DNA of 52,133 nucleotides from a virus (lineage: Duplodnaviria > Caudoviricetes), in IMG/VR virus record IMGVR_UViG_3300009509_000046, positions 1 through 52,133 of that record; one strand, 5' to 3'. The position numbers were made by a program, and so were the translations under genes. The notes below the pieces were generated by a model. It ran no database searches and had not been told where the DNA came from. It was given only the letters and a program-made list of their open reading frames with translations. Positions 1-47,602 of the stretch are shown piece after piece; position 1 is the stretch's first letter, and every line of letters begins with the position of its first letter.

Positions 1-369
1 GCATTATCGGACCTTATGCCTGCCCACCTTATAAACGTTATTCGCGTTTTGCAGGGACGTCCGATAAACGGTCCGAAAGTTTCACGTTTTGCCCAAAACC
101 TACTCGGAAATTTATCGGACGTTACGGTCGATGTTTGGATATGTAAAGCTTTCGGTATAGACCATAAAAGCTTGACAAAACGTCTATATGAGCGTATCGA
201 AAAGAAAATACAAAAGCTTGCGAAACAAGCTGGATATCGTCCGGCAGAATATCAAGCTATCATGTGGTATGCCGTCCGGCGGTTGTCCGGCAAAAAGCCG
301 AAAAGCTTTGTTTCGGTATATCGCTCGATATTTTGTGAAACTCCGTGTTTTGAATTTATGAAAGAATAA
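1..369 (+). CDS. Partial phage protein (5' end outside window), DUF7178-like / HhH-GPD glycosylase-like C-terminal region
   Basis: Frame is open from base 1. The motifs GPKVSRFAQNL, VTVDVW and PAEYQAIMW resemble a phage family related to HhH-GPD DNA glycosylases. Confidence 0.55.
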   Translation, partial: ALSDLMPAHLINVIRVLQGRPINGPKVSRFAQNLLGNLSDVTVDVWICKAFGIDHKSLTKRLYERIEKKIQKLAKQAGYRPAEYQAIMWYAVRRLSGKKPKSFVSVYRSIFCETPCFEFMKE

Positions 370-416
370 GTTAAATAAATAACAAACAAGTTTTTTTGGT
401 GTTTGGTGATTTTTCG

Positions 417-445
417 TTTTGCTTTTCTCTTTTATATGTTATACT
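417..445 (+). promoter_or_regulatory. Extended -10 sigma70-type promoter
   Basis: TGtTATACT at 437-445 in a T-rich intergenic gap; the -35 element is weak. Confidence 0.5.
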
Positions 446-490
446 ATATATAGAGGAAACGAAAACAGGGACAAAGTTAAGGGGACAAAA

Positions 491-646
491 ATGAACAAGA
501 GAATTTTGACATCAAGCGTAATTATCGTTATCGTTTTTGTTTGGACGTGCATTTTAGGTGTTAAGGCCTGCACGTTTGCAAGCAAAACAGCAAAAGCCGA
601 ACAGGATAGAATAAACGCCGCTTTTTCAATACTACAAGACAGATAG
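491..646 (+). CDS. Small membrane protein
   Basis: GGGGACAAAA leader before ATG 491; one hydrophobic segment. Confidence 0.6.
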   Translation: MNKRILTSSVIIVIVFVWTCILGVKACTFASKTAKAEQDRINAAFSILQDR

Positions 647-656
647 GGGACAAATT

Positions 657-767
657 ATGTTAAAAGTTGTGTATCATTCTTTTGAATGGACCGTGCTTGT
701 CGATAATGGATATATGACACTACACGTAAACGAGAATGGAATCGCTACAATGTTAAAAGTTTATTAG
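657..767 (+). CDS. 36-aa peptide (not in ORF track)
   Basis: GGGGGACAAATT-ATG leader like its neighbours. Reads MLKVVYHSFEWTVLVDNGYMTLHVNENGIATMLKVY and fills the gap exactly. Confidence 0.5.
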   Translation: MLKVVYHSFEWTVLVDNGYMTLHVNENGIATMLKVY

Positions 768-775
768 GGGACAAA

Positions 776-1270
776 ATGAATAATGTAGATCACGACAAAA
801 AGCTTTTTACATCGGATTCGTACGGCAATCTGTGTCCTGCGTCCGATAAGACGTATAAAGGATTCAAAATTGATATCGGACTTTCACATGTGAAAGTCTG
901 GGACAAATCCGATAACTTCGTCAGTGAATATCCTGATGAAAAATCGGCCAAACAAGCAATTGACGGTATGACAAAATCAATGCAATGGAAAATAATACAA
1001 ACGTCCGATAACGAAATTGAATGGCAAAAAGACGATTCTGGAATTTATAGTCTGATAACCTGGAATCCGTCCGATAACGTCAGATGCGATTTAATGTCCG
1101 ATAACCACGAGCCGATAGTGACGTTTGTCGGAAAGTCCGATAACGTCCGCAAGGCAATTTGCAAGTTTTGTTCCGATAACCAGATTCACTTATCGGACCA
1201 ACACGCAAGTTATATCGGACGTGAATTGACAAGAGCCGAATTCGAGACAACGTCCTATAACCAGGACTAA
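776..1270 (+). CDS. Hypothetical protein with C-terminal DUF4346-like motif
   Basis: GGGGACAAA-ATG leader. The C-terminus HASYIGRELTRAE...YNQD matches the HAxYLGRELxxAE...YxQD signature. Confidence 0.6.
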   Translation: MNNVDHDKKLFTSDSYGNLCPASDKTYKGFKIDIGLSHVKVWDKSDNFVSEYPDEKSAKQAIDGMTKSMQWKIIQTSDNEIEWQKDDSGIYSLITWNPSDNVRCDLMSDNHEPIVTFVGKSDNVRKAICKFCSDNQIHLSDQHASYIGRELTRAEFETTSYNQD

Positions 1271-1786
1271 TCACTTCGTCCGATAACCCGGTCGGACTTT
1301 CATTTCCCAAAGGCCGATAATGTTATGGGCATTATCGGTCCTTCCTTTTGTCCGGCTCCAAACATTATCGGACCTGGACCTCAGCTTAGCATTATCGGAC
1401 CTTCGAGCTGGCCGGAATTTATTATCGGACCCGCCGATTTTGACGTCCGATAACCTACGTCCGATAATTGGCGTTATGTGTCACTCAGTTATCGGACCTG
1501 CTCAAGTCCGATAATATCGACGTCCGATAACCTACGTCCGATAACGTGCTACCAAAACGTCCGATAATATCATGCAATAGATCGCAGAAAAGCCGACCAA
1601 CGTCCGATAATCATTTGCAAAGGGGCCTTTCCCCCAAGACATTATCGGACCGGCCAACGGCCCACCCCCGAAATGTCACTCTGCGGCTGCTTTATAATTT
1701 TAAAAATAGGCCCATCCCCAAAATAATCATCTAACAAATTCAAAAGTTGCATTTTTAAAAAACTGAAAATAAAAAGCAAAATTCCC

Positions 1787-1815
1787 TTGACCGGCGTCAA
1801 AGAATATGCTATACT
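1787..1815 (+). promoter_or_regulatory. Sigma70-type promoter with A-tracts upstream
   Basis: TTGACC-17 bp-TATACT with extended TG; the -35 lies within the palindrome TTGAC-N4-GTCAA. Confidence 0.75.
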
Positions 1816-2640: not shown

Positions 2641-2828
2641 TGCAACTATACACAGCGAAAGTCAAGAATGGAAGGGAAGTCATCGGCCAACACATAAACC
2701 TGAATGGGGTCGACTACATCGTGTCTGATACCACATTGTCTTCAACGAACATTACCGGCATGATCCGAATATGGGGAGCATACGAGATCGAACCCGAAAC
2801 ACTGAGGAGAATTGATGATAAATGTTGA
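2640..2828 (+). CDS. Small hypothetical protein (YopX-like ending)
   Basis: TAATG overlap with the upstream stop; YEIEPETL motif. Confidence 0.5.
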   Translation: MQLYTAKVKNGREVIGQHINLNGVDYIVSDTTLSSTNITGMIRIWGAYEIEPETLRRIDDKC

Positions 2829-3309
2829 CGCTATCAAATTTGTTGAAGCCGCTAAAGAAGCTGGTACGATTCCGAACGAGACCCAAGACATCCAAGACCC
2901 ATTGTATCGAGCCGAGTGTCTCACAGAAGCAATCTTGGCGGCTCAGCTCGCCTACTGTCCCTATAGCAAGTTTCATGTGGGTGCAGCGGTCATAACGAAC
3001 ATGGGACAGATCCACGCAGGCTGCAATGTAGAGAACGCGGCCTACGGCAGTACGATCTGTGCAGAGCGAAACGCGATCACGACGATGATTGCTCAGAACG
3101 GTCCGGCCACAAAGATACAGGAAGTGACAATCTGGTGCCAGACGACTGTGCCGGTCCCGCCGTGCGGTGCCTGCCGCCAAGTAATCCGCGAATTTGCGGA
3201 GAACCTGCAAATCAGAATCTGGAGTTACTGTGCCGACCCGACAGTGAAACCTTTGGGCCTAAGACTCGATGAGCTACTGCCCTTCTCGTTTGGGCCGGAG
3301 AATCTTTGA
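2812..3309 (+). CDS. cdd: Cytidine deaminase (homotetrameric type)
   Basis: AYCPYSKFHVGAAV, GCNVENAAYG, CAERNAI, PCGACRQ and LLPFSF motifs; zinc ligands and catalytic Glu intact. Confidence 0.95.
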   Translation: MMINVDAIKFVEAAKEAGTIPNETQDIQDPLYRAECLTEAILAAQLAYCPYSKFHVGAAVITNMGQIHAGCNVENAAYGSTICAERNAITTMIAQNGPATKIQEVTIWCQTTVPVPPCGACRQVIREFAENLQIRIWSYCADPTVKPLGLRLDELLPFSFGPENL

Positions 3310-3342
3310 CAAGTATCATACATGCAACACTGAGGAAAACTT

Positions 3343-3567
3343 ATGGATATAACTGTAATTGTGAACAATTTGAAAAAGGCTCTTAAAAATACGAAGATGC
3401 CTGAGAATGTCACTGTCTCCAAAGCATTTGAGTTGATTGAGCAGCATATCGACTCATTTTGCACGGCCTGCAAAGGCACAGGTAAAGTAAGAGTGTGGAT
3501 TGCTCAAGACGAGCTTGGGCCATCTGAGTCCTGTAAGAAGTGCAAAGGCACTGGTCGGAGAACCTGA
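3343..3567 (+). CDS. DnaJ-type CxxCxGxG zinc-finger protein
   Basis: CTACKGTG and CKKCKGTG. Confidence 0.7.
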   Translation: MDITVIVNNLKKALKNTKMPENVTVSKAFELIEQHIDSFCTACKGTGKVRVWIAQDELGPSESCKKCKGTGRRT

Positions 3568-3568
3568 T

Positions 3569-3736
3569 ATGATGAATTATTTGGCATTTGCAGCGTTATG
3601 TTGTATTGTCATGTGGTCTAATGTCTGGGGCTACCGACGATGGTGTGGGGGTAAATGGATTCAGGCGATGATATTTGCGTTCATTGGAGCATACGCGATT
3701 TGTTGTATAGCACTTAAATTGCAGGAGTGGCTGTGA
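3569..3736 (+). CDS. Small two-TM membrane protein
   Basis: Two hydrophobic segments; fits the gene packing. Confidence 0.5.
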   Translation: MMNYLAFAALCCIVMWSNVWGYRRWCGGKWIQAMIFAFIGAYAICCIALKLQEWL

Positions 3737-4350
3737 AACCTACAGCGTCGAACGTATTCGCAAAAGAGCTTGATTATTTCACGCTACACCATGTGAGAGA
3801 GTTTGTGCTACATGTCTTCGGTGAAATGTGCCCGCAATACTTCTGGTATATCCGAGCCAGCCAACGCGGTCATCACCACCCGCTGATGCGGACCTATGGT
3901 GGTTTGGTGCATCATGTCAAGTTGGCTTTTCGATTTGCGAATTCCTTCACGGAGATGCACCCGCACGCGACGATGAACGAGCGGACCTACAATCAGATAC
4001 TCGCGGCAGTGCTGCTGCACGACATGATGAAGCGTGGAGCTGAGAGAGATGAGCTGGTGACATTTGGCAATCATAAAATCGCCGCCAGGAGTCACGGTCG
4101 ATACTGTGCCGATGAAATCAAGACGCACATATTCGACGGCAAGATTGAAATAGAATGGCTTCCGATTGTTGAAGCTGTCCGGCTGCACATGGGACGCTGG
4201 ACCCATGAGGTCACTGATGACGAGCTGTTGCTTTTGCAAAACGATCCAGTCGTTTGGTATACTCATTTGGCCGACTACGCCGCGAGCCGCAGCCTGCACA
4301 AGTGGATTGGTGAAAGATACACCGACGAGAGCATGAGGTATTTGAGTTGA
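3727..4350 (+). CDS. HD-domain phosphohydrolase (YhaM/Cbf1-like HD)
   Basis: HH...GGLVHH...LLHD...HG...HMGRW...ADY. Confidence 0.85.
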   Translation: MAVKPTASNVFAKELDYFTLHHVREFVLHVFGEMCPQYFWYIRASQRGHHHPLMRTYGGLVHHVKLAFRFANSFTEMHPHATMNERTYNQILAAVLLHDMMKRGAERDELVTFGNHKIAARSHGRYCADEIKTHIFDGKIEIEWLPIVEAVRLHMGRWTHEVTDDELLLLQNDPVVWYTHLADYAASRSLHKWIGERYTDESMRYLS

Positions 4351-4375
4351 CAAAGCATATCATAAATGATATAAT
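4347..4375 (+). promoter_or_regulatory. Perfect consensus sigma70 promoter
   Basis: TTGACA-17 bp-TATAAT with extended TG. Confidence 0.85.
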
Positions 4376-4407
4376 ACGACTCAGATTAAGAAAAGGAGTC
4401 GTGAAAA

Positions 4408-4542
4408 ATGCCAGTGAGCAGAAGCGGCAAATGCCTATGGATGAAGAGAGCCGGAAAATGGTTCAAATTCAAATGCTACCGAACAGTGAAGGCAGCGAAA
4501 ATAGGTTACGCCCATTACAAGCGGAAATACGTCGGCCACTGA
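4408..4542 (+). CDS. 44-aa highly basic peptide (not in ORF track)
   Basis: AAGGAG RBS 9 nt before ATG. Reads MPVSRSGKCLWMKRAGKWFKFKCYRTVKAAKIGYAHYKRKYVGH. Its stop overlaps the next ATG (TGATG). Confidence 0.6.
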   Translation: MPVSRSGKCLWMKRAGKWFKFKCYRTVKAAKIGYAHYKRKYVGH

Positions 4543-5042
4543 TGGTTTTTAAGGCTCAAAAGGTTGAGCCTATTTATAAACCTGCGGTCAGAGCGTTGTG
4601 TTGTAAACGATACGCGGGGCATCCTTATGGCTGTCCCAACTTCGGCAAGCGACCAGACTGTCCGCCCGACGCTCCGCTGCTGCCGGAATTCTTCGACACA
4701 ACGCATCCCTTCTGGGCATTGTGGGTTGACTTTGACCTGGAACAGTGGGTCGCTACGATGCAGGCCGGGCACCCAGGGTGGAGCTACGGGCAATGTGCGA
4801 ACCTTAGATACTGGCAACCGAAGGCCAGGAAGTTTCTACGCGAGCACGCCGAGAAGTGGGCTGCAAATTACTCAGCTCGGTGGAAAGACTTAACCTGCGA
4901 ACAAGGCTTTGAGTTGGCAAGCAATCCCGAAGCAATGGGAATTGATGTCACTTCAACAATGAAACGTATCGGAGTGCACCTGGAGTGGCCCCCGAAGAAA
5001 ATCGTCCGAAAGATTTATCTATTAGGAGCACGGAAGAGATGA
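4542..5042 (+). CDS. DUF2284-like predicted metal-binding protein
   Basis: C...CPNFGKRPDCPP and PEAMGIDVxxT motifs; start revised from 4347. Confidence 0.7.
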   Translation: MVFKAQKVEPIYKPAVRALCCKRYAGHPYGCPNFGKRPDCPPDAPLLPEFFDTTHPFWALWVDFDLEQWVATMQAGHPGWSYGQCANLRYWQPKARKFLREHAEKWAANYSARWKDLTCEQGFELASNPEAMGIDVTSTMKRIGVHLEWPPKKIVRKIYLLGARKR

Positions 5043-6512: not shown

Positions 6513-6541
6513 TTGACTTTTTAAGCGATATGTCCTATAAT
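6513..6541 (+). promoter_or_regulatory. Sigma70-type promoter of packaging genes
   Basis: TTGACT-17 bp-TATAAT; the motif variant GTCCTATAA overlaps the -10. Confidence 0.75.
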
Positions 6542-7087: not shown

Positions 7088-7346
7088 GTGTGGTTTCAAG
7101 AAAGATTTGGCTATCGTGGCAGCGGGAACACTTGCCGAAGAATTGAATAAGAGGTTTGGTGACACACTGAGTCCAAGCTTGTGTGCGAAAGCTGTTGCGG
7201 CGTTCATTGCAAAGCCGATGGGTATTAACTGTGGCTCATGTGGTTGGCGAACAGCGGGAACAAAGCACTGTACGCAACGTGATTGTAAAACAAGTGACAC
7301 TGACCAGTGTGACCTTTATCGTCACCTACACAAGATGACAATATGA
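7077..7346 (+). CDS. Hypothetical protein with Cys-rich C-terminus
   Basis: CGSCGW...C...C...C; fills the terS-terL gap with overlaps. Confidence 0.55.
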   Translation: MMAECGFKKDLAIVAAGTLAEELNKRFGDTLSPSLCAKAVAAFIAKPMGINCGSCGWRTAGTKHCTQRDCKTSDTDQCDLYRHLHKMTI

Positions 7347-8851
7347 GTCAGAAGGTTGAATGGCGACTAAATGAGATGGGCGTACTTACCGCGTTTATCG
7401 ACGGGACGCCCGCGATATGGTTTCCTCAACCTGGAAGCCAAGAGGCATTGTTGCGTTGTCCTATTTTTGAATGTCTCTTGGCAGGCAACCGAGGCGGTGG
7501 AAAGACCGACGTGTTGTTGATGGACTTCGCACAACATATTGGCCGTGGCTTTGGTGAAGAATGGAAAGGTATTCTATTTCGGCGTACCTTCCCTGAGCTT
7601 GATGATGTGATTGGAAAGTCACTCAAATGGTTCAAGAAGATATGGCCTGGAGCGGACTACAATAAACAAGCGAAAACTTGGACGTGGCCGACTGGTGAGT
7701 CACTGAAATTCAGACACATCATTCGACCGAACGAGTATTGGAATTATCACGGCCACTCATATCCCTGGATAGGATTTGAAGAATTGACAACATGGCCTAA
7801 CTCAGAATGTTATACACCGCTGTTCTCGCTTAGCCGATCTACGCATCCGGTTGTGGCGAAGCTCTGTCGTGTTCGTGCCACTACAAATCCCTACGGCCCA
7901 GGGCATAACTGGGTAAAGAAACGGTTCAGATTACCGATGGCACCGGGCATGTTGATTGGCGAAGTCATAAAGGATCTCCGAACAGGTATCAGAGAAGATG
8001 AACGCGAGAAACCTCGCGTTGCTATTCGCAGCTCATTGGCTGAAAATAAGATTCTACTCTTGGCGGACCCAGGCTATGTCAACACACTTCGAGTTGCTGC
8101 CCGCAATCCGCAAGAGCTGGCGGCGTGGATTGAAGGCTCGTGGGACATTACCTCTGGTGGTATGTTTGACGACCTCTGGAGTGAAAAAATCCATGTTATC
8201 CCAAATATCCCATATTTCCTACTTAGGAAATCAGGCTGGTTTATGAATCGTGCGTATGACCACGGCCAGTCAAAACCGTTCGCTGTTGGATGGTGGGCTG
8301 AATCTAACGGAACGCCGATCCAGATTTTCGGCAAGCAATATGGTCAAGTCAGAGGTGATTTGTTCTTGTTTGATGAACTGTACGGCATGGGTAAAGAGGA
8401 TAATAAGGGCTTGAACATGACTGCTGGTCAAATTGCCCAGAGAATCCGAGAAAAAGAAGCTGATATGGGGTTACGTGGTAGAATTAAACGTGGTCCTGCT
8501 GATAATCAGATCTTCTCAAAATATGATGGTGTCAAGACTGTAGCAGGTGACATGAAAAAAGAAGGTGTCTATTGGGACACAGTTGATAAGTCGGCTGGAT
8601 CTCGTATTCAAGGCTGGCAGCAAATAAGAACACGACTCCAGGGAGCAATACCGGCGATAGAAGGTCCGCGAGAAACTCCAGGGATCTTTGTGTGTGAACG
8701 ATGTACCCATAACAGAAGAACGGTTCCTTGTCTGTCACGAGACGATAAGAATCTCGACGATGTCAACACAGAAGCAGAAGATCACTGTGGTGACATGTGG
8801 AGATATCGTTTAAGATGGACGCGGCGTTCAATTATTCAAAGGAAGTGGTGA
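7343..8851 (+). CDS. terL: Terminase large subunit
   Basis: Walker A GNRGGGKT, Walker B WIGFEEL, RATTNPYGPGHNWVK, nuclease motif EDHCGD. Confidence 0.95.
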   Translation: MSQKVEWRLNEMGVLTAFIDGTPAIWFPQPGSQEALLRCPIFECLLAGNRGGGKTDVLLMDFAQHIGRGFGEEWKGILFRRTFPELDDVIGKSLKWFKKIWPGADYNKQAKTWTWPTGESLKFRHIIRPNEYWNYHGHSYPWIGFEELTTWPNSECYTPLFSLSRSTHPVVAKLCRVRATTNPYGPGHNWVKKRFRLPMAPGMLIGEVIKDLRTGIREDEREKPRVAIRSSLAENKILLLADPGYVNTLRVAARNPQELAAWIEGSWDITSGGMFDDLWSEKIHVIPNIPYFLLRKSGWFMNRAYDHGQSKPFAVGWWAESNGTPIQIFGKQYGQVRGDLFLFDELYGMGKEDNKGLNMTAGQIAQRIREKEADMGLRGRIKRGPADNQIFSKYDGVKTVAGDMKKEGVYWDTVDKSAGSRIQGWQQIRTRLQGAIPAIEGPRETPGIFVCERCTHNRRTVPCLSRDDKNLDDVNTEAEDHCGDMWRYRLRWTRRSIIQRKW

Positions 8852-11084: not shown

Positions 11085-11132
11085 ATCGGACCCGGATTTC
11101 TTATTGACTTCCGGGTCCGATAATGTTATAAT
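11085..11132 (+). promoter_or_regulatory. Major capsid promoter with an inverted-repeat operator containing the array motif
   Basis: TTGACT (11104)-17 bp-TATAAT (11127). ATCGGACCCGGA (11085-11096) and TCCGGGTCCGAT (11110-11121) flank the -35. GTCCGATAA at 11115. Confidence 0.85.
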
Positions 11133-11244
11133 ACCATAGTTGAAAAGTGAATAGCACTTGGCAAGAGCGACTCTTACCGGGACCGCGATGGTCTTCAAAT
11201 GTGCTGATTGAAGATGAAACGTAACCCGAAAAAGGAGACGAAAA

Positions 11245-33178: not shown

Positions 33179-33415
33179 ATGATGGACGATAAAGAAAAAC
33201 AGATGATTGAGCAAGCCGTGGAATGCACCCTGACGAAACTTGGTTTTGATTTATCGGACCCAATCTCTGCCCAAGAAGATATGCACTTCTTGCGTTCTCT
33301 TCGTCATTTGACACAAGCCTGCGGAACAAAAGCCGTGATGACCATGATAGGTTTAATTACGATAGCAGTCGCTGGGGGAGTCCTGCTGGCTATCGGAAAG
33401 GCTATCGGCAAGTAA
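33179..33415 (+). CDS. Small single-TM membrane protein (holin candidate)
   Basis: C-terminal hydrophobic helix; directly after the tail module. Confidence 0.55.
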   Translation: MMDDKEKQMIEQAVECTLTKLGFDLSDPISAQEDMHFLRSLRHLTQACGTKAVMTMIGLITIAVAGGVLLAIGKAIGK

Positions 33416-33514: not shown

Positions 33515-34279
33515 ATGAAAAAGAAAAGTAAGAAAACAGAAATGGTGAAAGCTACGAACCCGAAAGACGCTATCGGCATAAAGAAAGTGCCGATGAGCTG
33601 CCTCAGTAGTCACTCGGTCGCGTTGGTTGCTCTGGCAATGCAGGACGAAGGTCTTGATGATTGTCACGAATGCAATGTTCATGCAAGTGTACACTTCGAC
33701 GCAGCCATAGCGAACCTGATGCTGTTCTGGGAAGGAATCGGAGACGACGACAGTACTCCAAAGTTAGCTCGTGCAATGGCTCACGGAGTTGTGTTACGTC
33801 ACGCTGAGCTTGAGCATAGGTTGGTGGACGACCGCGTCGGCATCGAAGGTCTTCACGTCAAAAAGCTGAATGTATTCGCAGAACAAATCATTGAAAAGCT
33901 GCCGAAGTGCGTAGAGCCTTACACGCAGCTACCGGCAGGCACAGTCGGCTTCCAAGTACCAATCACCATTGATGCCGAGATACCCTTCCACATTCTGCCC
34001 TGGCAAGTTATCCTCGAAATAGCTCTGGGTATGATGGAGGGTGGTCGCAAGTATGGCCGACACAACTACCGAGCTGTTGGGGTCAGAGCAGCCGTGTACT
34101 ATGATGCAACGATCCGACATTTTGGTGACTTCATTGAAGGAACGCAGGTGGACAAGGATAGTGGTCTATCTCACTTGACGAAGGCGTTGTCGAGTATGCA
34201 AGTGCTGCTCGATTGTCAGGTCATGGGTAATTGGATTGATGACCGTCCGCTTCGTGTGCCCGGCTGTATCCAGTCGTAG
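33515..34279 (+). CDS. Tandem dATP/dGTP diphosphohydrolase (DUF5664-type), first copy degenerate
   Basis: TNPKDAIGIKK; second copy EGGRKYGRHNYR...YYDATIRH...DKDSGLSHL...DDRP. Confidence 0.85.
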   Translation: MKKKSKKTEMVKATNPKDAIGIKKVPMSCLSSHSVALVALAMQDEGLDDCHECNVHASVHFDAAIANLMLFWEGIGDDDSTPKLARAMAHGVVLRHAELEHRLVDDRVGIEGLHVKKLNVFAEQIIEKLPKCVEPYTQLPAGTVGFQVPITIDAEIPFHILPWQVILEIALGMMEGGRKYGRHNYRAVGVRAAVYYDATIRHFGDFIEGTQVDKDSGLSHLTKALSSMQVLLDCQVMGNWIDDRPLRVPGCIQS

Positions 34280-34290
34280 TAGGAGAGGAT

Positions 34291-34896
34291 ATGAGAAAAC
34301 ACATAGTATATCTCGATTGTGACCAAGTGCTAACCGATTTCGTCGCTGGGATTTGTAAGAAAGTAGGCTACGATTATCCTGGCACATATAATTGGCCGGA
34401 AGGCTGGACATACGACATGTTTGAAGCCGCAGGGACTTCCAGAGAAGAAGCAGATAAACTTTGTGACATCAACTTCTGGGCTAATTTGGATTGGATGGAA
34501 GATGGTCGTGACATTCTAAAGGCTGTGTTGGACCGATTCAAACCACACGAAATAGTTGTCCTAACTAAGCCAATGCGTAATAGTGGGGCCTATACCGGCA
34601 AAATGATTTGGTTTGAGAATAATATTCCCCAACTCTATGACCGAGTAGTGCCGTCACTTGTGCCCAAAGAAGTCTTTGCGGTGGATTTTAATACATTGCT
34701 TGTTGATGATTGCCAAGAAAACATCGAACAATTTATCAGAGCTGGTGGAGCTGGTATTCTTGTCCCTCGACCTTGGAATAAGCAAGACCAGTTATTCTAT
34801 AGCGGTAAGGCTGTTTCCTATGTGGCCCGTATGCTTGATAAGTGGATTAGAATAGCAAATCACCCAGCGAGAAGTAGAAAGGAGCAACATGTCTAA
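34291..34896 (+). CDS. 5'(3')-deoxyribonucleotidase, HAD NT5C family
   Basis: YLDCDQVLTDF, FWANL, LTKP, LLVDD...NI..F..AGG.GIL. Confidence 0.85.
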   Translation: MRKHIVYLDCDQVLTDFVAGICKKVGYDYPGTYNWPEGWTYDMFEAAGTSREEADKLCDINFWANLDWMEDGRDILKAVLDRFKPHEIVVLTKPMRNSGAYTGKMIWFENNIPQLYDRVVPSLVPKEVFAVDFNTLLVDDCQENIEQFIRAGGAGILVPRPWNKQDQLFYSGKAVSYVARMLDKWIRIANHPARSRKEQHV

Positions 34897-39164: not shown

Positions 39165-39725
39165 ATGAGCAAAGCACCGTATGATTATTCAGCATTCGAG
39201 GAAGACGCAGCCACAAATCAAGAGGATGTGCTTGGTAAGATTTCAAAGCTTGCTGATGAAATGCACAACCTTAATAAGCAGATAGCTAAACAAGAGCTGA
39301 AACTAAAAAAACTCAAAGAAAATCACAGACAAATCGCTGAGGAACAACTGCCTGAGTTGTTCAATGAAGTAGGCATGTCTGAGCTAAGAACAAAAAGCGG
39401 ACTTCCTTTGAAAATGAAGAACCGCGTACACACAAATATCTCGAAGGATCGTAAGCCCAAAGCAATCGCATGGCTTGATGAGAATGGTCAAGGTGGAATG
39501 GTCAAGCGTTGTGTCATCATCGACTTCGACAAGACCAAAGAAGAAAAAGTGAGAGCACTTCTCCGGCTAATCGGAAAAGGTTGGCCGAATAACCGCGTAG
39601 AGTTGGACGTCCACGCTTCAACCGTAAAGGCGTTCGTCAAAAAGCGATTAGAAGATGGAGAGGAAATACCTCTGGACATTTTCGGCGTACATTGTGTAGA
39701 TGTAGTCGAAATCTCAAGCAAATAG
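39165..39725 (+). CDS. Conserved phage replication-module protein
   Basis: LPELFNEVGMSEL, AIAWLDENG, VHASTVKAFVK. Confidence 0.75.
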   Translation: MSKAPYDYSAFEEDAATNQEDVLGKISKLADEMHNLNKQIAKQELKLKKLKENHRQIAEEQLPELFNEVGMSELRTKSGLPLKMKNRVHTNISKDRKPKAIAWLDENGQGGMVKRCVIIDFDKTKEEKVRALLRLIGKGWPNNRVELDVHASTVKAFVKKRLEDGEEIPLDIFGVHCVDVVEISSK

Positions 39726-39764
39726 CGGTACGTACCTATTATCATTTTTTGAGGAGCACAGAAT

Positions 39765-40601
39765 ATGGCAAACAAGAAAGACAAGACCGAAACAGACTTG
39801 GCCGTCAAGAACGAAGGCCAAACCGCTCTCGCTGGTCGCTTCGACTATGGCGACATGGCTGGTGACGGCTGGGACAACACGGGACAGGATGATTTTACGA
39901 TCCCGTTCTTGGCAATCGTCCAAGCGATGTCCCCGCAGGTCCAAGAGACCGAGGCGGAGTATATCGAAGGTGCAAAAGCTGGCAATCTTCTCAACACAGC
40001 CTCGAAGGAGCTGTTCGACGGCAGGGAAGGCATCACGTTTGTGCCCTGCTACACTCAGCACTTGTTTGTTGAGTGGAAAAATCGTCAGCTCGATGGTGGT
40101 GGCTTCGTCGCTATCCATGAGTGTGATAGTGACATCGTCATGGAAGCAAAGGCTGCATCCAAAGAGTTTGGCAAGTACACTGTGCCTGTAGATAGCGGGC
40201 ATCCTCACGACTTGGTCGAGACGTTCTACATCTATGGCCTTATCGTGAACGAAGGAGAAATTGTAACGCCTTGCATGATTTCTTTCAACAGCACCAAAAT
40301 AAAGGCATACAAGGCAATTATGACGCCTATGCGTCAAGTCAAGGGCCGTCCACCGATGTTCGCATTCCTTCTCAAGATTAGCACCGTTAGTGAGAAGAAC
40401 GCGAAGGGCACCTATCACAATTTCAAGCTCAGCTTCGCCAATGGCTCAGCGGCAGATTCTCTCCTACCCCCAGACCACGTCTTTGTCCTGGCGGGCAAGG
40501 AATTCAAGGATCAGGTAGCCGAGGGTAAGGCGAAGATCGATCACAGTGGTGCCAATATGGGCGGCGAAAGCTATGACAGCGACGAAGATGCCCCGTTCTA
40601 A
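39765..40601 (+). CDS. ssDNA-binding/annealing protein
   Basis: IPFLAIVQAMSPQV...GAKAG; acidic tail ending DEDAPF. Confidence 0.7.
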   Translation: MANKKDKTETDLAVKNEGQTALAGRFDYGDMAGDGWDNTGQDDFTIPFLAIVQAMSPQVQETEAEYIEGAKAGNLLNTASKELFDGREGITFVPCYTQHLFVEWKNRQLDGGGFVAIHECDSDIVMEAKAASKEFGKYTVPVDSGHPHDLVETFYIYGLIVNEGEIVTPCMISFNSTKIKAYKAIMTPMRQVKGRPPMFAFLLKISTVSEKNAKGTYHNFKLSFANGSAADSLLPPDHVFVLAGKEFKDQVAEGKAKIDHSGANMGGESYDSDEDAPF

Positions 40602-44821: not shown

Positions 44822-45258
44822 TGGAACAACAGCAACGACAATTTTTGGTGAAGGCCCTGACTAAGGCGGGACTCGATGCAACAAGCGTCGAAAATCCCGC
44901 CTATCCAGGGACACCAGACATTCAATTCATCGACGGATGGATAGAGTGTAAGTACTTGGAAGACTGGCCGAAGAAAGAAGAAACAACTGTACGCATTCCA
45001 CACTTCACGCAGCAACAACGAGTTTGGTTACTACGCCGATGGTTAGAAGTCACCAAGAAAGCAACGCTTAGAAAAATCTATGGGGCTGGCTGGCTTGTGC
45101 TTTATGTTGCAAGTACAAAAGACTGGCTTGTGTTCAATGGCGAAATAGCAGCAAGGCATGTGGCGAAGGATGGAGTGAATAAAGCTAAGCTTTTTGAGCT
45201 TGCTTGTCTAACAACGAATAATGTACAGGATGTAATTGATTATGTCACTATCTCTTGA
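44821..45258 (+). CDS. PD-(D/E)xK nuclease (VRR-NUC / Holliday junction resolvase-like)
   Basis: VENPAYPGTPDI...WIECK...QQRVWL. Confidence 0.8.
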   Translation: MEQQQRQFLVKALTKAGLDATSVENPAYPGTPDIQFIDGWIECKYLEDWPKKEETTVRIPHFTQQQRVWLLRRWLEVTKKATLRKIYGAGWLVLYVASTKDWLVFNGEIAARHVAKDGVNKAKLFELACLTTNNVQDVIDYVTIS

Positions 45259-47602
45259 ATTCCTAAAACAATTTAGGCCGGACGGACCCTGGACGCTCAC
45301 GGCAATTCCGGTAGACGGCGGAAAGCTTAACACCGTGACATTCACGGACGAACTTGAAGACAAACTGGAAGACTGGCTTGTCAAGAACGGTGAAGGTCAT
45401 AATATATACTTCTCTGTCAATCCTTGCCGCGAATCTATTAGTAAAAAGGCTTCTCGTGAAGATATCCAGTCAGTCGAATATCTACATGTCGATGTGGACC
45501 CACGTGCCGGGGAGAGCCTGAAGCTTGAACAAAAAAGAATCCTCGACAAAATCCGAGCATTCAAGCCTACTCCTACGTGTGTCATATTCTCTGGGGGCGG
45601 GTATCAAGCATTCTGGCGGCTCGAAGAACCAATCATCATAGATGGTGACATTGCCAAAGCCGAATCAGCGAAACGCTACAACATGCAACTTGAGCTACTT
45701 TTGGGCGGAGACAACTGTCATAACATCGACCGGATTATGAGATTGCCGGGAACGATGAACCGGCCAAACGCTAAGAAGCGTAAGAAGGGCCGCAAAGAAA
45801 TCCTGGCCGAAACGGTCCACTTGGATACAAAGATATCATATCCTATTAGCCAATTCACAGCGGCTCAGAAGGTCCAATCATCAGCTTCTGCTGGGTTTTC
45901 TGGTGGTCGATCTGATCTTACACCCAAAGTGGATACGGCCAACATTCGGCGGATAGAGGATCTCTCCGAGCTGGGCGATAGTGTGAAAGATTGGGTCAAA
46001 GTGCTGATTGCCCAAGGGCGTGATCCTGATGAGCCTCATCGGTTCAAATCCCGCAGTGAGGCATTGTTCTGTGTATGCTGCGAATTAGTCCGAGCCGGTA
46101 TTGATGATGAGACTATCTTCTCAATCATCACCGACAAAGACTTCGGCATTGCTGAGTCGGTTGTGCAGCTCGGATCAAGAGCAGAAGCCTACGCCCTGCG
46201 GCAGATCGAGCGAGCCAAAGAAAATGCGGTAGATCCAGCTCTCCGCGAGCTGAATGAAAAGCACGCCGTGATCTCCAGCATCGGCGGCAAGTGTCGCGTG
46301 ATTGCAGAAGAATTCGATCACTCATTCGGCAGACCTAAAATAGAATTGCAAACCTTCCAAGACTTTTCAAATCGGTATATGCACCGCAAAGTAAAAGTTG
46401 GTGAAGACAAGAACGGTGCTGCCGTATTCATGCCGCTCGGCAAGTGGTGGTTGCAACATAAGAACAGACGTCAATTCGACCAAATGATTTTCGTACCGGC
46501 CCAAGAAGTTGACGGAGCGTTCAATCTGTGGCGTGGCTTCAATTGCGAAGCTATACCGGGAGCATGTGACCTGTTCCTCAATCACCTGAAAGATAACGTG
46601 TGCTGCGGCAACGCCGAATACTATCAGTATCTCATGGCGTGGCTGGCCGCTGCCGTACAGAACCCCGGCAAGCCTGCTGGGACCGCCGTCGTTATGCGTG
46701 GTAAGCAAGGGACAGGAAAATCGTTCTTTGCGAAAGCAGTTGGCAAGCTGTTCGGCCAACACTTCTTGCATATCAGCAACTCGAAACATCTGGTCGGTTC
46801 CTTCAATGCTCACCTGCGTGACTGCGTCCTATTGTTCGCCGATGAAGCATTCTACGCCGGTGACAAAAAGAGTGAAGGCATCTTGAAAGCACTCATCACC
46901 GAAGAACATATCGTCATCGAAAAGAAGGGCATCGACTCCGAAGCACAACCAAATTACATTCACCTAATCATGGCCTCTAACAGCGACTGGGTCGTGCCGG
47001 TAGCTATGGATGATCGTCGTTTCTTCGTTCTGGATATGGGCGAAACACATCGACGTGACTCTCAATACTTTGGTGACATCATGGCTCAGCTCGAAAACGG
47101 TGGGTATGAAGCTCTACTCCACCACCTGATGTCACTTGATATCACGAAAATAGATCTGCGGATTCCACCAAACACTGAGGCGCTTGCTGAACAGAAGCAG
47201 CTCAATTTGAGTCCCGAACAAGCTTGGTGGTATGATAAGCTCCACGAAGGTCGTGTCCTGGCAAGACATGAAGGCTGGGAAACAACAATCTGTAAAGAAG
47301 AATTGCTGTTCGATTTGGAGAGATTTGTCAAGCGTTACGCGGGCAATTATATGAACCGAATTTCTATGACCCGGCTTGGTCGATTTCTAAGTCGAATAAT
47401 GCCTGCGGGCTTACCTCAAACAACAACCCAGCGAGTCAGCCCAGATCCGAAGGCACCTTATGACACTGGATTGAACTTCAACACAAATCCAAAGTGCTAC
47501 AAGATAGGGACATTGATAGACTGCCGGAAGTGCTGGGACGACATCCAGGGCTTCAAAACAAAATGGCAGGATGCAATCACCGATGAACAACCGCCGTTTT
47601 AG
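45242..47602 (+). CDS. Primase-helicase (RepB-type AEP primase plus SF3/DUF5906 helicase)
   Basis: NIYFSVN, HVDVD, SGGGYQAFW, RIMRLPGT; GKQGTGKS, FADE, ASN, DDRRF. Confidence 0.92.
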   Translation: MSLSLEFLKQFRPDGPWTLTAIPVDGGKLNTVTFTDELEDKLEDWLVKNGEGHNIYFSVNPCRESISKKASREDIQSVEYLHVDVDPRAGESLKLEQKRILDKIRAFKPTPTCVIFSGGGYQAFWRLEEPIIIDGDIAKAESAKRYNMQLELLLGGDNCHNIDRIMRLPGTMNRPNAKKRKKGRKEILAETVHLDTKISYPISQFTAAQKVQSSASAGFSGGRSDLTPKVDTANIRRIEDLSELGDSVKDWVKVLIAQGRDPDEPHRFKSRSEALFCVCCELVRAGIDDETIFSIITDKDFGIAESVVQLGSRAEAYALRQIERAKENAVDPALRELNEKHAVISSIGGKCRVIAEEFDHSFGRPKIELQTFQDFSNRYMHRKVKVGEDKNGAAVFMPLGKWWLQHKNRRQFDQMIFVPAQEVDGAFNLWRGFNCEAIPGACDLFLNHLKDNVCCGNAEYYQYLMAWLAAAVQNPGKPAGTAVVMRGKQGTGKSFFAKAVGKLFGQHFLHISNSKHLVGSFNAHLRDCVLLFADEAFYAGDKKSEGILKALITEEHIVIEKKGIDSEAQPNYIHLIMASNSDWVVPVAMDDRRFFVLDMGETHRRDSQYFGDIMAQLENGGYEALLHHLMSLDITKIDLRIPPNTEALAEQKQLNLSPEQAWWYDKLHEGRVLARHEGWETTICKEELLFDLERFVKRYAGNYMNRISMTRLGRFLSRIMPAGLPQTTTQRVSPDPKAPYDTGLNFNTNPKCYKIGTLIDCRKCWDDIQGFKTKWQDAITDEQPPF

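Follow-up and report, generated by a model that had tools for sequence, protein, structure and literature searches.

Dense two-strand arrays of a 9-bp motif matching the XerC arm of dif in several groups of tailed phages

The DNA considered here, called the window, is the entire 52,133-base IMG/VR record IMGVR_UViG_3300009509_000046, classed as linear and 82% complete, and the element of interest is a dense array of a 9-bp motif, GTCCGATAA, that occupies both strands of its first 1.65 kb. The array begins in the 3' part of a DUF7178 gene, runs through a 164-aa open reading frame (ORF), and continues into a noncoding core (cluster A), beyond which lie an AT-rich stretch and a sigma-70-type promoter (Table 1). 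The ORFs of the window are almost all on the + strand. Further along are a putative small terminase (TerS) gene, the large terminase (TerL) gene, and, by Pfam matches at 8.8 to 23 kb, genes for the portal, capsid protein, tail tube, and tape measure; Pfam also identifies a family A polymerase, an SF1 helicase, an SNF2 helicase, a RepB-primase/DUF5906 helicase, and several nucleotide-metabolism enzymes. Integrase, repressor, and partition genes were not seen among the scanned ORFs, a subset of those in the window, and the phage is apparently a virulent siphovirus.

Table 1. Features of the array and of other motif-bearing or related sites (window coordinates)
Feature	Position	Strand	Comment
3' part of DUF7178 gene, cut by the window edge	1..369	+	Motif copies at 4 (-), 59 (+), and 112 (-)
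164-aa ORF	776..1270	+	Spans 6 exact and 6 one-mismatch copies
Cluster A, noncoding core array	1278..1650		13 exact and 2 one-mismatch copies
Two terminator-like hairpins formed from motif copies	1278..1340	+	1278-1297; 1312-1340 with 13-bp stem and T-rich tail
dif-like core	1457..1484	+	ACGTCCGATAA, then TTGGCG, then TTATGTGTCAC
Inverted motif pair 1602 (+)/1642 (-)	1602..1650		Around G/C hairpin GGGGCCTTTCCCCC (1622-1635)
AT-rich stretch	1686..1786		26.7% G+C, compared with 46.3% for the window
Sigma-70-type promoter TTGACC-17-TATACT	1787..1815	+	Reads into downstream genes
TerS-gene promoter TTGACT-17-TATAAT	6513..6541	+	T variant GTCCTATAA (6532-6540) overlaps -10 hexamer
TerL gene	7343..8851		Without Pfam match; role from gene order and many relatives
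Capsid promoter TTGACT-17-TATAAT	11104..11132	+	Motif 11115-11123 in spacer
Isolated motif copy	33251..33259	-	Inside 78-aa ORF 33179-33415, read L-S-D
Primase-helicase (RepB-primase/DUF5906)	45236..47602		

GTCCGATAA occurs exactly 24 times in the window, compared with 0.37 expected (standard deviation, 0.71; maximum in 100 shuffles, 3), and 41 times with at most one mismatch, compared with 9.3 expected, 30 of the latter lying within 4-1650. The original prediction, made from the letters alone, had described a dense bidirectional array here, and its description holds up in detail. There are 22 exact copies in 4-1650 (14 on the + strand and 8 on the - strand) and eight with one mismatch (at 873, 907, 1050, 1171, 1212, 1252, 1312, and 1332), the only exact copies elsewhere are at 11115 (+) and 33251 (-), and the density maximum falls in noncoding DNA, at 1278-1650. 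The forms proposed for forward and reverse copies with their flanks, ACGTCCGATAAC and CATTATCGGACC, agree with the flank counts: the base directly 5' of the motif is C in 11 of 14 + copies and G in 7 of 8 - copies, an A stands two bases before the motif in 16 of 22, and C and T each follow it directly in 9. A reported run of four reverse copies spaced 33, 27, and 30 bp apart is present (1332, which has one mismatch, 1365, 1392, and 1422), and a 26-bp doublet is exactly duplicated (1442-1467 and 1519-1544), each instance consisting of two arms 5 bp apart. With copies on both strands, irregular gaps of 5 to about 80 bp, and no tandem array, the locus is neither a CRISPR nor a simple tandem repeat, as had been argued; Tandem Repeats Finder reports in 1-2500 only an unrelated 13-nt unit at 2463.

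Read on the + strand, the orientations in cluster A run + (+ -) - - - + + - + + + + + -, with the brackets marking the one-mismatch pair 1312/1332, and the two terminator-like hairpins lie directly 3' of the stop codon of ORF 776-1270. Within that ORF, eight of nine forward copies are in a single frame and are read as S-D/Y-N/K; its homologues in relatives cover the first ~65 aa only (a 91-aa ORF in relative G006, 41.5% over 65 aa; an ORF in relative G008, 36% over 44 aa).

A search with TerL returned 79 loci, and the complete relatives among them are rich in the motif, with 12 copies in G006 (60,247 bp), 21 in G008 (63,855 bp), and 44 in G007 (97,868 bp), compared with none of the reversed word. 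In all three, two noncoding clusters flank a cassette of 3.5 to 4.5 kb containing the DUF7178 gene, a homologue of ORF 776-1270, and varying extra genes. The array of the window is the downstream cluster (A) of such a pair, and the upstream cluster (B) must lie just beyond base 1. Base 1 is not a genome end: the first gene is truncated at its 5' side and independent contigs extend 956 bp leftward. The lack of an equivalent cluster in relatives, which the original prediction had named, together with a lack of specific protein binding, as grounds for abandoning it, is not what is seen. Cluster A has a single architecture in the window, L051, G006, G008, and G007, lying between the variable cassette and the AT-rich stretch with its strong promoter: a reverse block is followed by a forward doublet 5 bp apart, six bases, TTATGT, a reverse copy 21 to 22 bp past the doublet, a forward block, and an inverted pair enclosing a G/C hairpin, after which come an A/T-rich stretch (compared in four relatives) and a promoter of sigma-70 type. 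This block order is repeated in the relatives, the orientation pattern having been compared for the window and G007, and the inverted pair with its G/C hairpin is present in five of five relatives compared. The orientation of cluster B varies among relatives.

In Desulfobacterota and Myxococcota, the arm of dif that XerC binds has the same 11 bases as the extended motif, ACGTCCGATAA. Predicted dif sites read ACGTCCGATAA-TATGGA-TTATGGTAACT in Anaeromyxobacter and AGGTCCGATAA-CATGCG-TTATGTAAACT in Myxococcus, and the XerC arms of Geobacter, Desulfovibrio, and Syntrophus are one-base variants, as given in the excerpted text of PMC2731167. Among 401 genomes of the phylum of a "Deltaproteobacteria" metagenome-assembled genome (MAG), the pattern GTCCGATAA-N6-TTATG is found in 58, nearly always as a single site with a dif-like center (the commonest being GATATA, counted by eye in about 20 of 61 matches listed), compared with 8 genomes, by our own count, for the reversed pattern. 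One genomic site, in G161, reads ACGTCCGATAA-GATATA-TTATGTAAACT, and the flank preferences of the window (AC before + copies and G before - copies) fit these dif arms. Near-identical contigs of the phage were assembled from marine-sediment, estuary, and mangrove sequencing runs, and Desulfobacterota- and Myxococcota-type bacteria are common in sediment habitats.

G161 has three dif-like sites with the same XerC arm, on contigs C71, C207, and C517 (L310 to L312), one with the usual center GATATA and two with TCTAGG or TATAGG. The latter two lie among ordinary bacterial genes, one beside a Tn3 transposase, and show no link to the phage. The three sites may belong to different strains or be remnants of Xer-dependent elements.

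The resemblance to dif extends beyond a single arm at one place in the phage array. The core at 1457-1484 consists of a XerC-type arm, a 6-bp center, and the inner half of a XerD-type arm, with a noncanonical outer half; it is preceded by another arm at 1445, 5 bp upstream, and followed by an inverted one at 1489, 21 bp downstream. The combination of motif, N6, and TTATG occurs at 15 of 967 sites in phage arrays, compared with about 0.9 expected, and these 15 represent nine distinct loci, six of which belong to the group of the window, one each and at the same place in cluster A. This core, with a varying center, is kept in the window, L051, G006/G010, G008, G007, and L015. Whereas dif occurs once per replicon, there are 22 exact copies of the motif in 1.65 kb here and 12 to 44 per relative genome, so that the array, taken in its entirety, does not qualify as a dif site.

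Similar arrays are present in viruses with which the window has little else in common. In a scan of viral contigs for at least three copies within about 90 bp, GTCCGATAA gives 85 loci, of which 55 are irregular; 39 of these are two-stranded and 32 have at least six sites. Only about ten of the array loci have genes in common with the window, and irregular arrays are found in at least four other phage groups. These include a podovirus group (G016, G022, G024, and G025) with a T7-type portal, in which the array directly follows TerL; a group with a 3,740-aa ORF (G011, L007, and others), presumably resembling N4-like phages, with four sites in a noncoding gap; and a group of 165- to 180-kb phages with 24 to 38 copies over about 5 kb, almost all in one orientation. 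Several further array-bearing records fall outside the named groups, and array sizes reach about 40 copies. The four control 9-mers, which include the reversed word with its 20 loci, none two-stranded, give 20, 14, 17, and 17 loci (a 10-base word, 0). Apart from three GTCCCATAA loci, of which two also contain the G form, these control loci are in essence regular repeats on one strand. The Geobacter-type one-base variant is near background except for a few mixed arrays. At L341 and L345, irregular viral arrays mix GTCCGATAA with GTCCCATAA, so the binder seems to take G or C at position 5, like the dif arms of the phylum. Our literature search, at the level of listings and abstracts, found no description of such arrays.

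In bacterial genomes, the same three-copy scan gives at least 120 loci, nearly all of them, from inspection of gap lists, evenly spaced one-strand repeats of coding type. Only 9 of the 120 listed have any opposite-strand copy, and only L224 (14 sites) and L217 (7 sites) resemble the viral arrays; both carry phage-like genes. L217 is a 6.4-kb contig of a Bdellovibrionales MAG, and L224 (G038:C1, about 78.6 to 93.8 kb) is a segment like those of the 165- to 180-kb group, with a 14-copy array, in a Heimdallarchaeota MAG scaffolded by 100-N gaps. No host is drawn from either, because bin membership is weak evidence and the 100-N gaps weaken the link to Heimdallarchaeota.

All-against-all blastp and phmmer with the ORFs of the window, of three relatives, of four whole genomes from other groups, and of 15 array loci revealed no family common to all groups. 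A tyrosine recombinase (PF00589) was not found in four of five complete array-bearing genomes and is absent from the complete relatives G006 and G008, and a phage recombinase as the binder is rejected for most groups. The lack of a common phage protein, together with the absence of a recombinase from four of five genomes, points to a host factor. These comparisons also bear on an iteron-type origin, one of the options in the original prediction, in which the primase-helicase or another initiator would bind the motif and the AT-rich stretch would be the unwinding element. The two-strand repeats do adjoin this 100-bp AT-rich stretch and a strong promoter, a similar A/T-rich stretch is present in four relatives, and the window has genes for a RepB-primase/DUF5906 helicase and a family A polymerase; in phage P4, an 8-bp repeat is present in both orientations at ori and crr. 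However, the replication proteins of the other groups, except for the family A polymerase, did not cluster with those of the window even though the 9-mer is the same, the copies are irregularly spaced and form two clusters per genome, and others lie in coding DNA and promoters, so that an origin is quite improbable.

A packaging or terminus signal, marking the start or end of terminase action or the edge of a terminal repeat as do the short-repeat arrays of T7, had also been proposed, and the podovirus group is where it is most suggestive. In its four related records the array stands right after TerL, at or near the contig end or an end repeat, and in G016 the first and last 428 bases are 96.7% identical; many records classed as linear likewise have the array within a few kilobases of an end. 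Of the three sequencing runs that cover both sides of cluster A, two (X5 and X10) give the left-hand cassette 1.9 and 1.7 times the right-side depth, as a terminal repeat would, but the third run has no depth step (25.1 versus 29.2; ratio, 0.86). Assembled contigs cannot show molecule ends, and the contig-end bias of arrays may be an artifact because repeats break assemblies; in the window, assembly units stop at 1272-1309 and 1592-1636, with a depth there about 8 times the flanking value. G022 has ends that overlap by no more than 48 bases, as would be expected of a circular assembly, and orientation relative to the nearest end is inconsistent among 11 records (five left ends mostly + and two mixed; two right ends mostly - and two mostly +). 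The TerL proteins of the groups did not cluster at the thresholds used, although the motif is identical. Suggestive as the podovirus arrangement is, it is not proof, and a packaging role is unlikely.

In the two runs that list them separately, assembly units of 34 to 45 bases, at 1272-1309, 1592-1636, and 3739-3772, are covered at 2.5 to 8 times the flank depth, and the 45-base unit at the inverted-pair element (1602-1650) has about 8 times the flank depth. Such short units of high depth are words common to co-occurring genomes or repeated in the missing part of the genome.

A search of candidate hosts for the motif, as the original prediction had proposed, finds the 9-mer in the dif arm and yet not over-represented in five genomes whose dif carries it: four have 3 to 7 copies and the fifth has 48, compared with 67 for a control. 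A phage array would thus outnumber the host sites. This rarity also argues against a Chi- or KOPS-like word, that is, a polar signal read from a DNA end by a host translocase of the RecBCD/AddAB or FtsK type. Arrays in nearly one orientation (23 of 24 copies in G020, 8 of 8 in G022, and 9 of 9 in G025) would suit such a signal, but in the window and its relatives both strands of the array carry copies, orientation with respect to contig ends is inconsistent, and the capsid-promoter site occurs in either orientation. Even allowing that the five genomes may not be the hosts, this explanation is highly improbable.

The motif is also embedded in two late promoters. At the near-consensus capsid promoter, the motif and its following base (G66-T75) are invariant in 13 aligned genomes while adjacent spacer bases vary, and in 3 of 17 capsid-promoter loci of relatives, all three distant, the motif is flipped but remains within the spacer, and another copy lies upstream of the -35 hexamer. 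The site overlaps the core promoter and is conserved above its surroundings, as in a promoter operator. An inverted repeat (11085-11096/11110-11121) that includes the motif brackets the -35 hexamer, and over its 15 pairs in the window and 13 relatives (alignment A2), 93.5% of cells are paired and five pairs have changed on both sides; none of 500 shuffles reaches the observed pairing, and slid controls reach at most 56.5%. A hairpin at the capsid -35 region, in DNA or in read-through RNA, is probably under selection, because changes are compensatory and the shuffles never match. The second promoter, at 6513-6541, precedes a gene that has no Pfam match and is putatively TerS from its position; "ATGTCCTATAA(T)" is present there in the window, L051, and G008, three of the four genomes examined (for G006 the sequence inspected was incomplete). 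Outside the array, no other sigma-70-like promoter with a score of at least 10 of 12 contains the motif.

Two further observations concern transcription signals. A perfect TTGACA-17-TATAAT promoter at 4347-4375, at the start of ORF 4347-5042, has no motif copy inside. Among relatives, the DNA of the leader that separates the capsid promoter from the capsid start codon (~11140-11244) is highly conserved (GCACTTGGCA...GACCGCGATGGTC); it may be a structured 5' leader, without a match in Rfam.

The promoter sites are explained best by a dedicated regulator, either phage-encoded and missed or a non-Xer host protein, that would repress the late TerS and capsid promoters, with the array as a sink or operator bank setting the timing and the likeness to dif coincidental. 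The invariance of the capsid site through reversals, the overlap with the TerS -10 hexamer, and the motif-free state of other strong promoters all favor it, as does the finding that arm words of other clades form no such phage arrays. Nonetheless, there is no candidate gene and no protein family common to all array-bearing groups, and the whole podovirus genomes G016 and G022 have no exact copy outside their arrays, and a role in promoters is thus not a general one. Moreover, the agreement with the dif arm extends over 11 bases, with TTATGT at +6 in the conserved site. A dedicated regulator, the main rival explanation, is therefore possible, although we lean against it.

The general claim of the original prediction, a multi-site nucleoprotein platform, is supported at the level of sequence comparison: the architecture is conserved, arrays are present in other groups for this word and not for control words, and the motif is invariant in late promoters. 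Among the specific options it listed, a sponge titrating a DNA-binding protein gains most from the identity of the motif with the XerC arm of a host-type dif, which falls short of proof. The match to a dif arm, the dif-like core, the second cluster in relatives, and the promoter sites go beyond what the original prediction had noted. The best single candidate, to which we give a probability of roughly 40%, is that the array is a multi-site platform for the dif-binding Xer recombinase of the host, because the motif is identical to a dif arm, the core is conserved, and no common phage protein was found. The array would then offer many closely packed double-stranded sites to a single sequence-specific protein not encoded by the phage, most likely a host tyrosine recombinase of the XerC type. 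Recombinase molecules would load onto roughly 30 arms, concentrating the enzyme at the dif-like core and enabling strand exchange there, which could cyclize or resolve replicated phage DNA or swap the adjacent cassette. Alternatively or additionally, growing phage DNA may soak up the protein and thereby free the two late promoters that carry the same site. An integration role is without support, because no integrase or repressor was seen among the scanned ORFs and no close prophage was found in the 401 genomes of the phylum; a scan of metagenome contigs for hybrid dif junctions gave 0, although it had low power, with only 5 cores found at all.

Several points weigh against a host Xer recombinase as the binder. 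No array site reaches the full canonical XerD arm, TTATGTNAANT, the outer half varying (GTCAC, TCGCT, GTCGC, TGTGC, and CACGC). In Escherichia coli, XerC alone binds a half-site poorly (dissociation constant, >100 nM) and does not block FtsK, and tight binding is described only for XerD or the XerC-XerD pair in the excerpted text of PMC2800217. Arm words of other clades give 0 loci (E. coli type) or 17 loci each that are never two-stranded (Frankia and Bacillus subtilis), so the phenomenon is not general, which weakens a reading specific to Xer. The 401 genomes of the phylum yielded no close prophage, TerL matching in only 2 and at only 34 to 36% identity. Array-bearing loci span 33 to 64% G+C and a relative of the large phages sits in a Heimdallarchaeota MAG, and a single common host clade is thus not assured. 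A small shared phage protein could have been missed, since ORFs shorter than 40 aa were excluded and the greedy choice of ORFs can lose genes. Finally, a low-abundance recombinase would be an odd choice as the repressor of two strong promoters.

A bolder proposal is that unrelated tailed phages of sediments have each acquired arrays of the XerC arm of the host dif, capturing Xer for a purpose other than integration. The arrays could be rows of roadblocks or unloading sites for SMC (structural maintenance of chromosomes) complexes, shielding phage DNA from host DNA motors or SMC-type defenses, or else replication-coupled sinks releasing late promoters with the same site. Such independent capture is doubtful; if true, it would mean that virulent phages use DNA sites to commandeer a housekeeping enzyme that is universal.

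The DUF7178 gene in the cassette encodes a candidate DNA-acting protein. Window positions 1-369 match PF23802 and phrog_3842, and relatives encode full-length 206-aa homologues (L286:10910-11530). The family has 101 homologues. Its AlphaFold model has a pLDDT of 89.3, and the best Foldseek match is 3knt_C, the 8-oxoguanine glycosylase of Methanocaldococcus jannaschii (TM score, 0.53; probability, 1.00; E = 0.14), with none at E ≤ 0.001; among solved structures, the model comes closest to archaeal and human 8-oxoguanine glycosylases, MutY, and endonuclease III. G108, K110, and D128 are invariant in 25 homologues, with a Gly-Pro-Lys hairpin and the Asp 18 residues after the Lys, a spacing as in the bifunctional HhH-GPD enzymes. 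The model thus gives the DUF7178 family, which the arrays flank, a likely fold, that of an HhH-GPD DNA glycosylase, and the family would probably comprise phage glycosylases/lyases. Our own DUF7178 profile finds only the group of the window, the podovirus G022, and G026, with tblastn adding a 32% match in L077, and the Pfam model finds nothing in five records of other groups, a search that says little, as its controls were also silent. DUF7178 as the binder of the array is not supported; searches of the whole genomes G016, G011, and G027 did not reveal it.

Other contents of the window are less directly connected with the array. Regions 2812-4350 and 33515-34896 encode a dCMP/cytidine deaminase, an HD phosphohydrolase-like protein, a MazZ-like dATP/dGTP diphosphohydrolase domain, and an NT5C nucleotidase, and proteins like Pam3 gp33/gp34 are encoded at 39165-40601; together these may reflect a modified DNA base. 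Relative G006 encodes an RtcB RNA ligase and a dUTPase-like protein in a region (L286:3482-4648) absent from the window. No tRNA was found in the window, Rfam families gave zero matches there, and bases 1-2000 have no match in cultured phages. The densest 137 bases give only chance matches of 24 to 27 bases to cultured phages at E ≤ 10 and nothing in plasmids.

If the arrays bind host Xer, virulent tailed phages would be exploiting the chromosome-resolution machinery through DNA sites alone, a strategy hitherto known from small integrating elements. The dif arm would also provide a sequence-only marker tying uncultured phages to host clades. Even with a different binder, one 9-mer that recurs in late promoters and across groups without a common protein would suggest a single host factor central to infection.

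Among known systems, the short-repeat arrays next to the T7 terminal repeats and the hexamer sets at P1 pac are also short repeats beside genome ends or a packaging site, and the podovirus-group array likewise follows TerL near the contig end; those repeats are private to each phage, whereas here one 9-mer matching a host site extends across groups for which no common protein was found. The omega heptads of pSM19035 and the iterons of P4 ori and crr share with the phage arrays a short motif in direct and inverted copies, with arrays as well as promoter sites. The heptads, of 7 bp, are contiguous and bound by a protein encoded alongside, whereas the spacing here is irregular and no cognate gene common to all groups was found.

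Other comparisons are with systems that use Xer. The attP sites of integrating mobile elements exploiting Xer (IMEX), such as the Vibrio phages CTX, TLC, and VGJ, are phage-borne dif-like sites in genomes without their own recombinase. The XerD arm is degenerate in TLC phage, and double jelly-roll phages have reportedly been added to the IMEX. However, the known IMEX are filamentous phages or small elements without arm arrays, whereas the present phage is tailed, of ~60 kb, with its own replication genes and no lysogeny gene seen, and of the integrated copies with hybrid dif sites that mark IMEX, no close copy was found in the 401 genomes and no hybrid junction in the low-power metagenome scan. 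XerD sites at the terminus of B. subtilis, which are few and dispersed on the chromosome, offer another parallel. They unload SMC complexes (Karaboja 2021, as cited in the excerpted text of PMC12322038), so that there, too, a Xer recombinase at nonrecombination sites has a structural DNA role, although the arm is that of XerD rather than XerC and no phage is involved. With dif itself, the arrays share the 11-base XerC arm ACGTCCGATAA and, at one site per relative, the 6-bp spacing and the TTATGT start of a second arm; they differ, as judged from sequence, in being phage-borne, in having a core whose second arm departs from the canonical outer half, and in carrying about 30 arms, nearly all of them lone half-sites.

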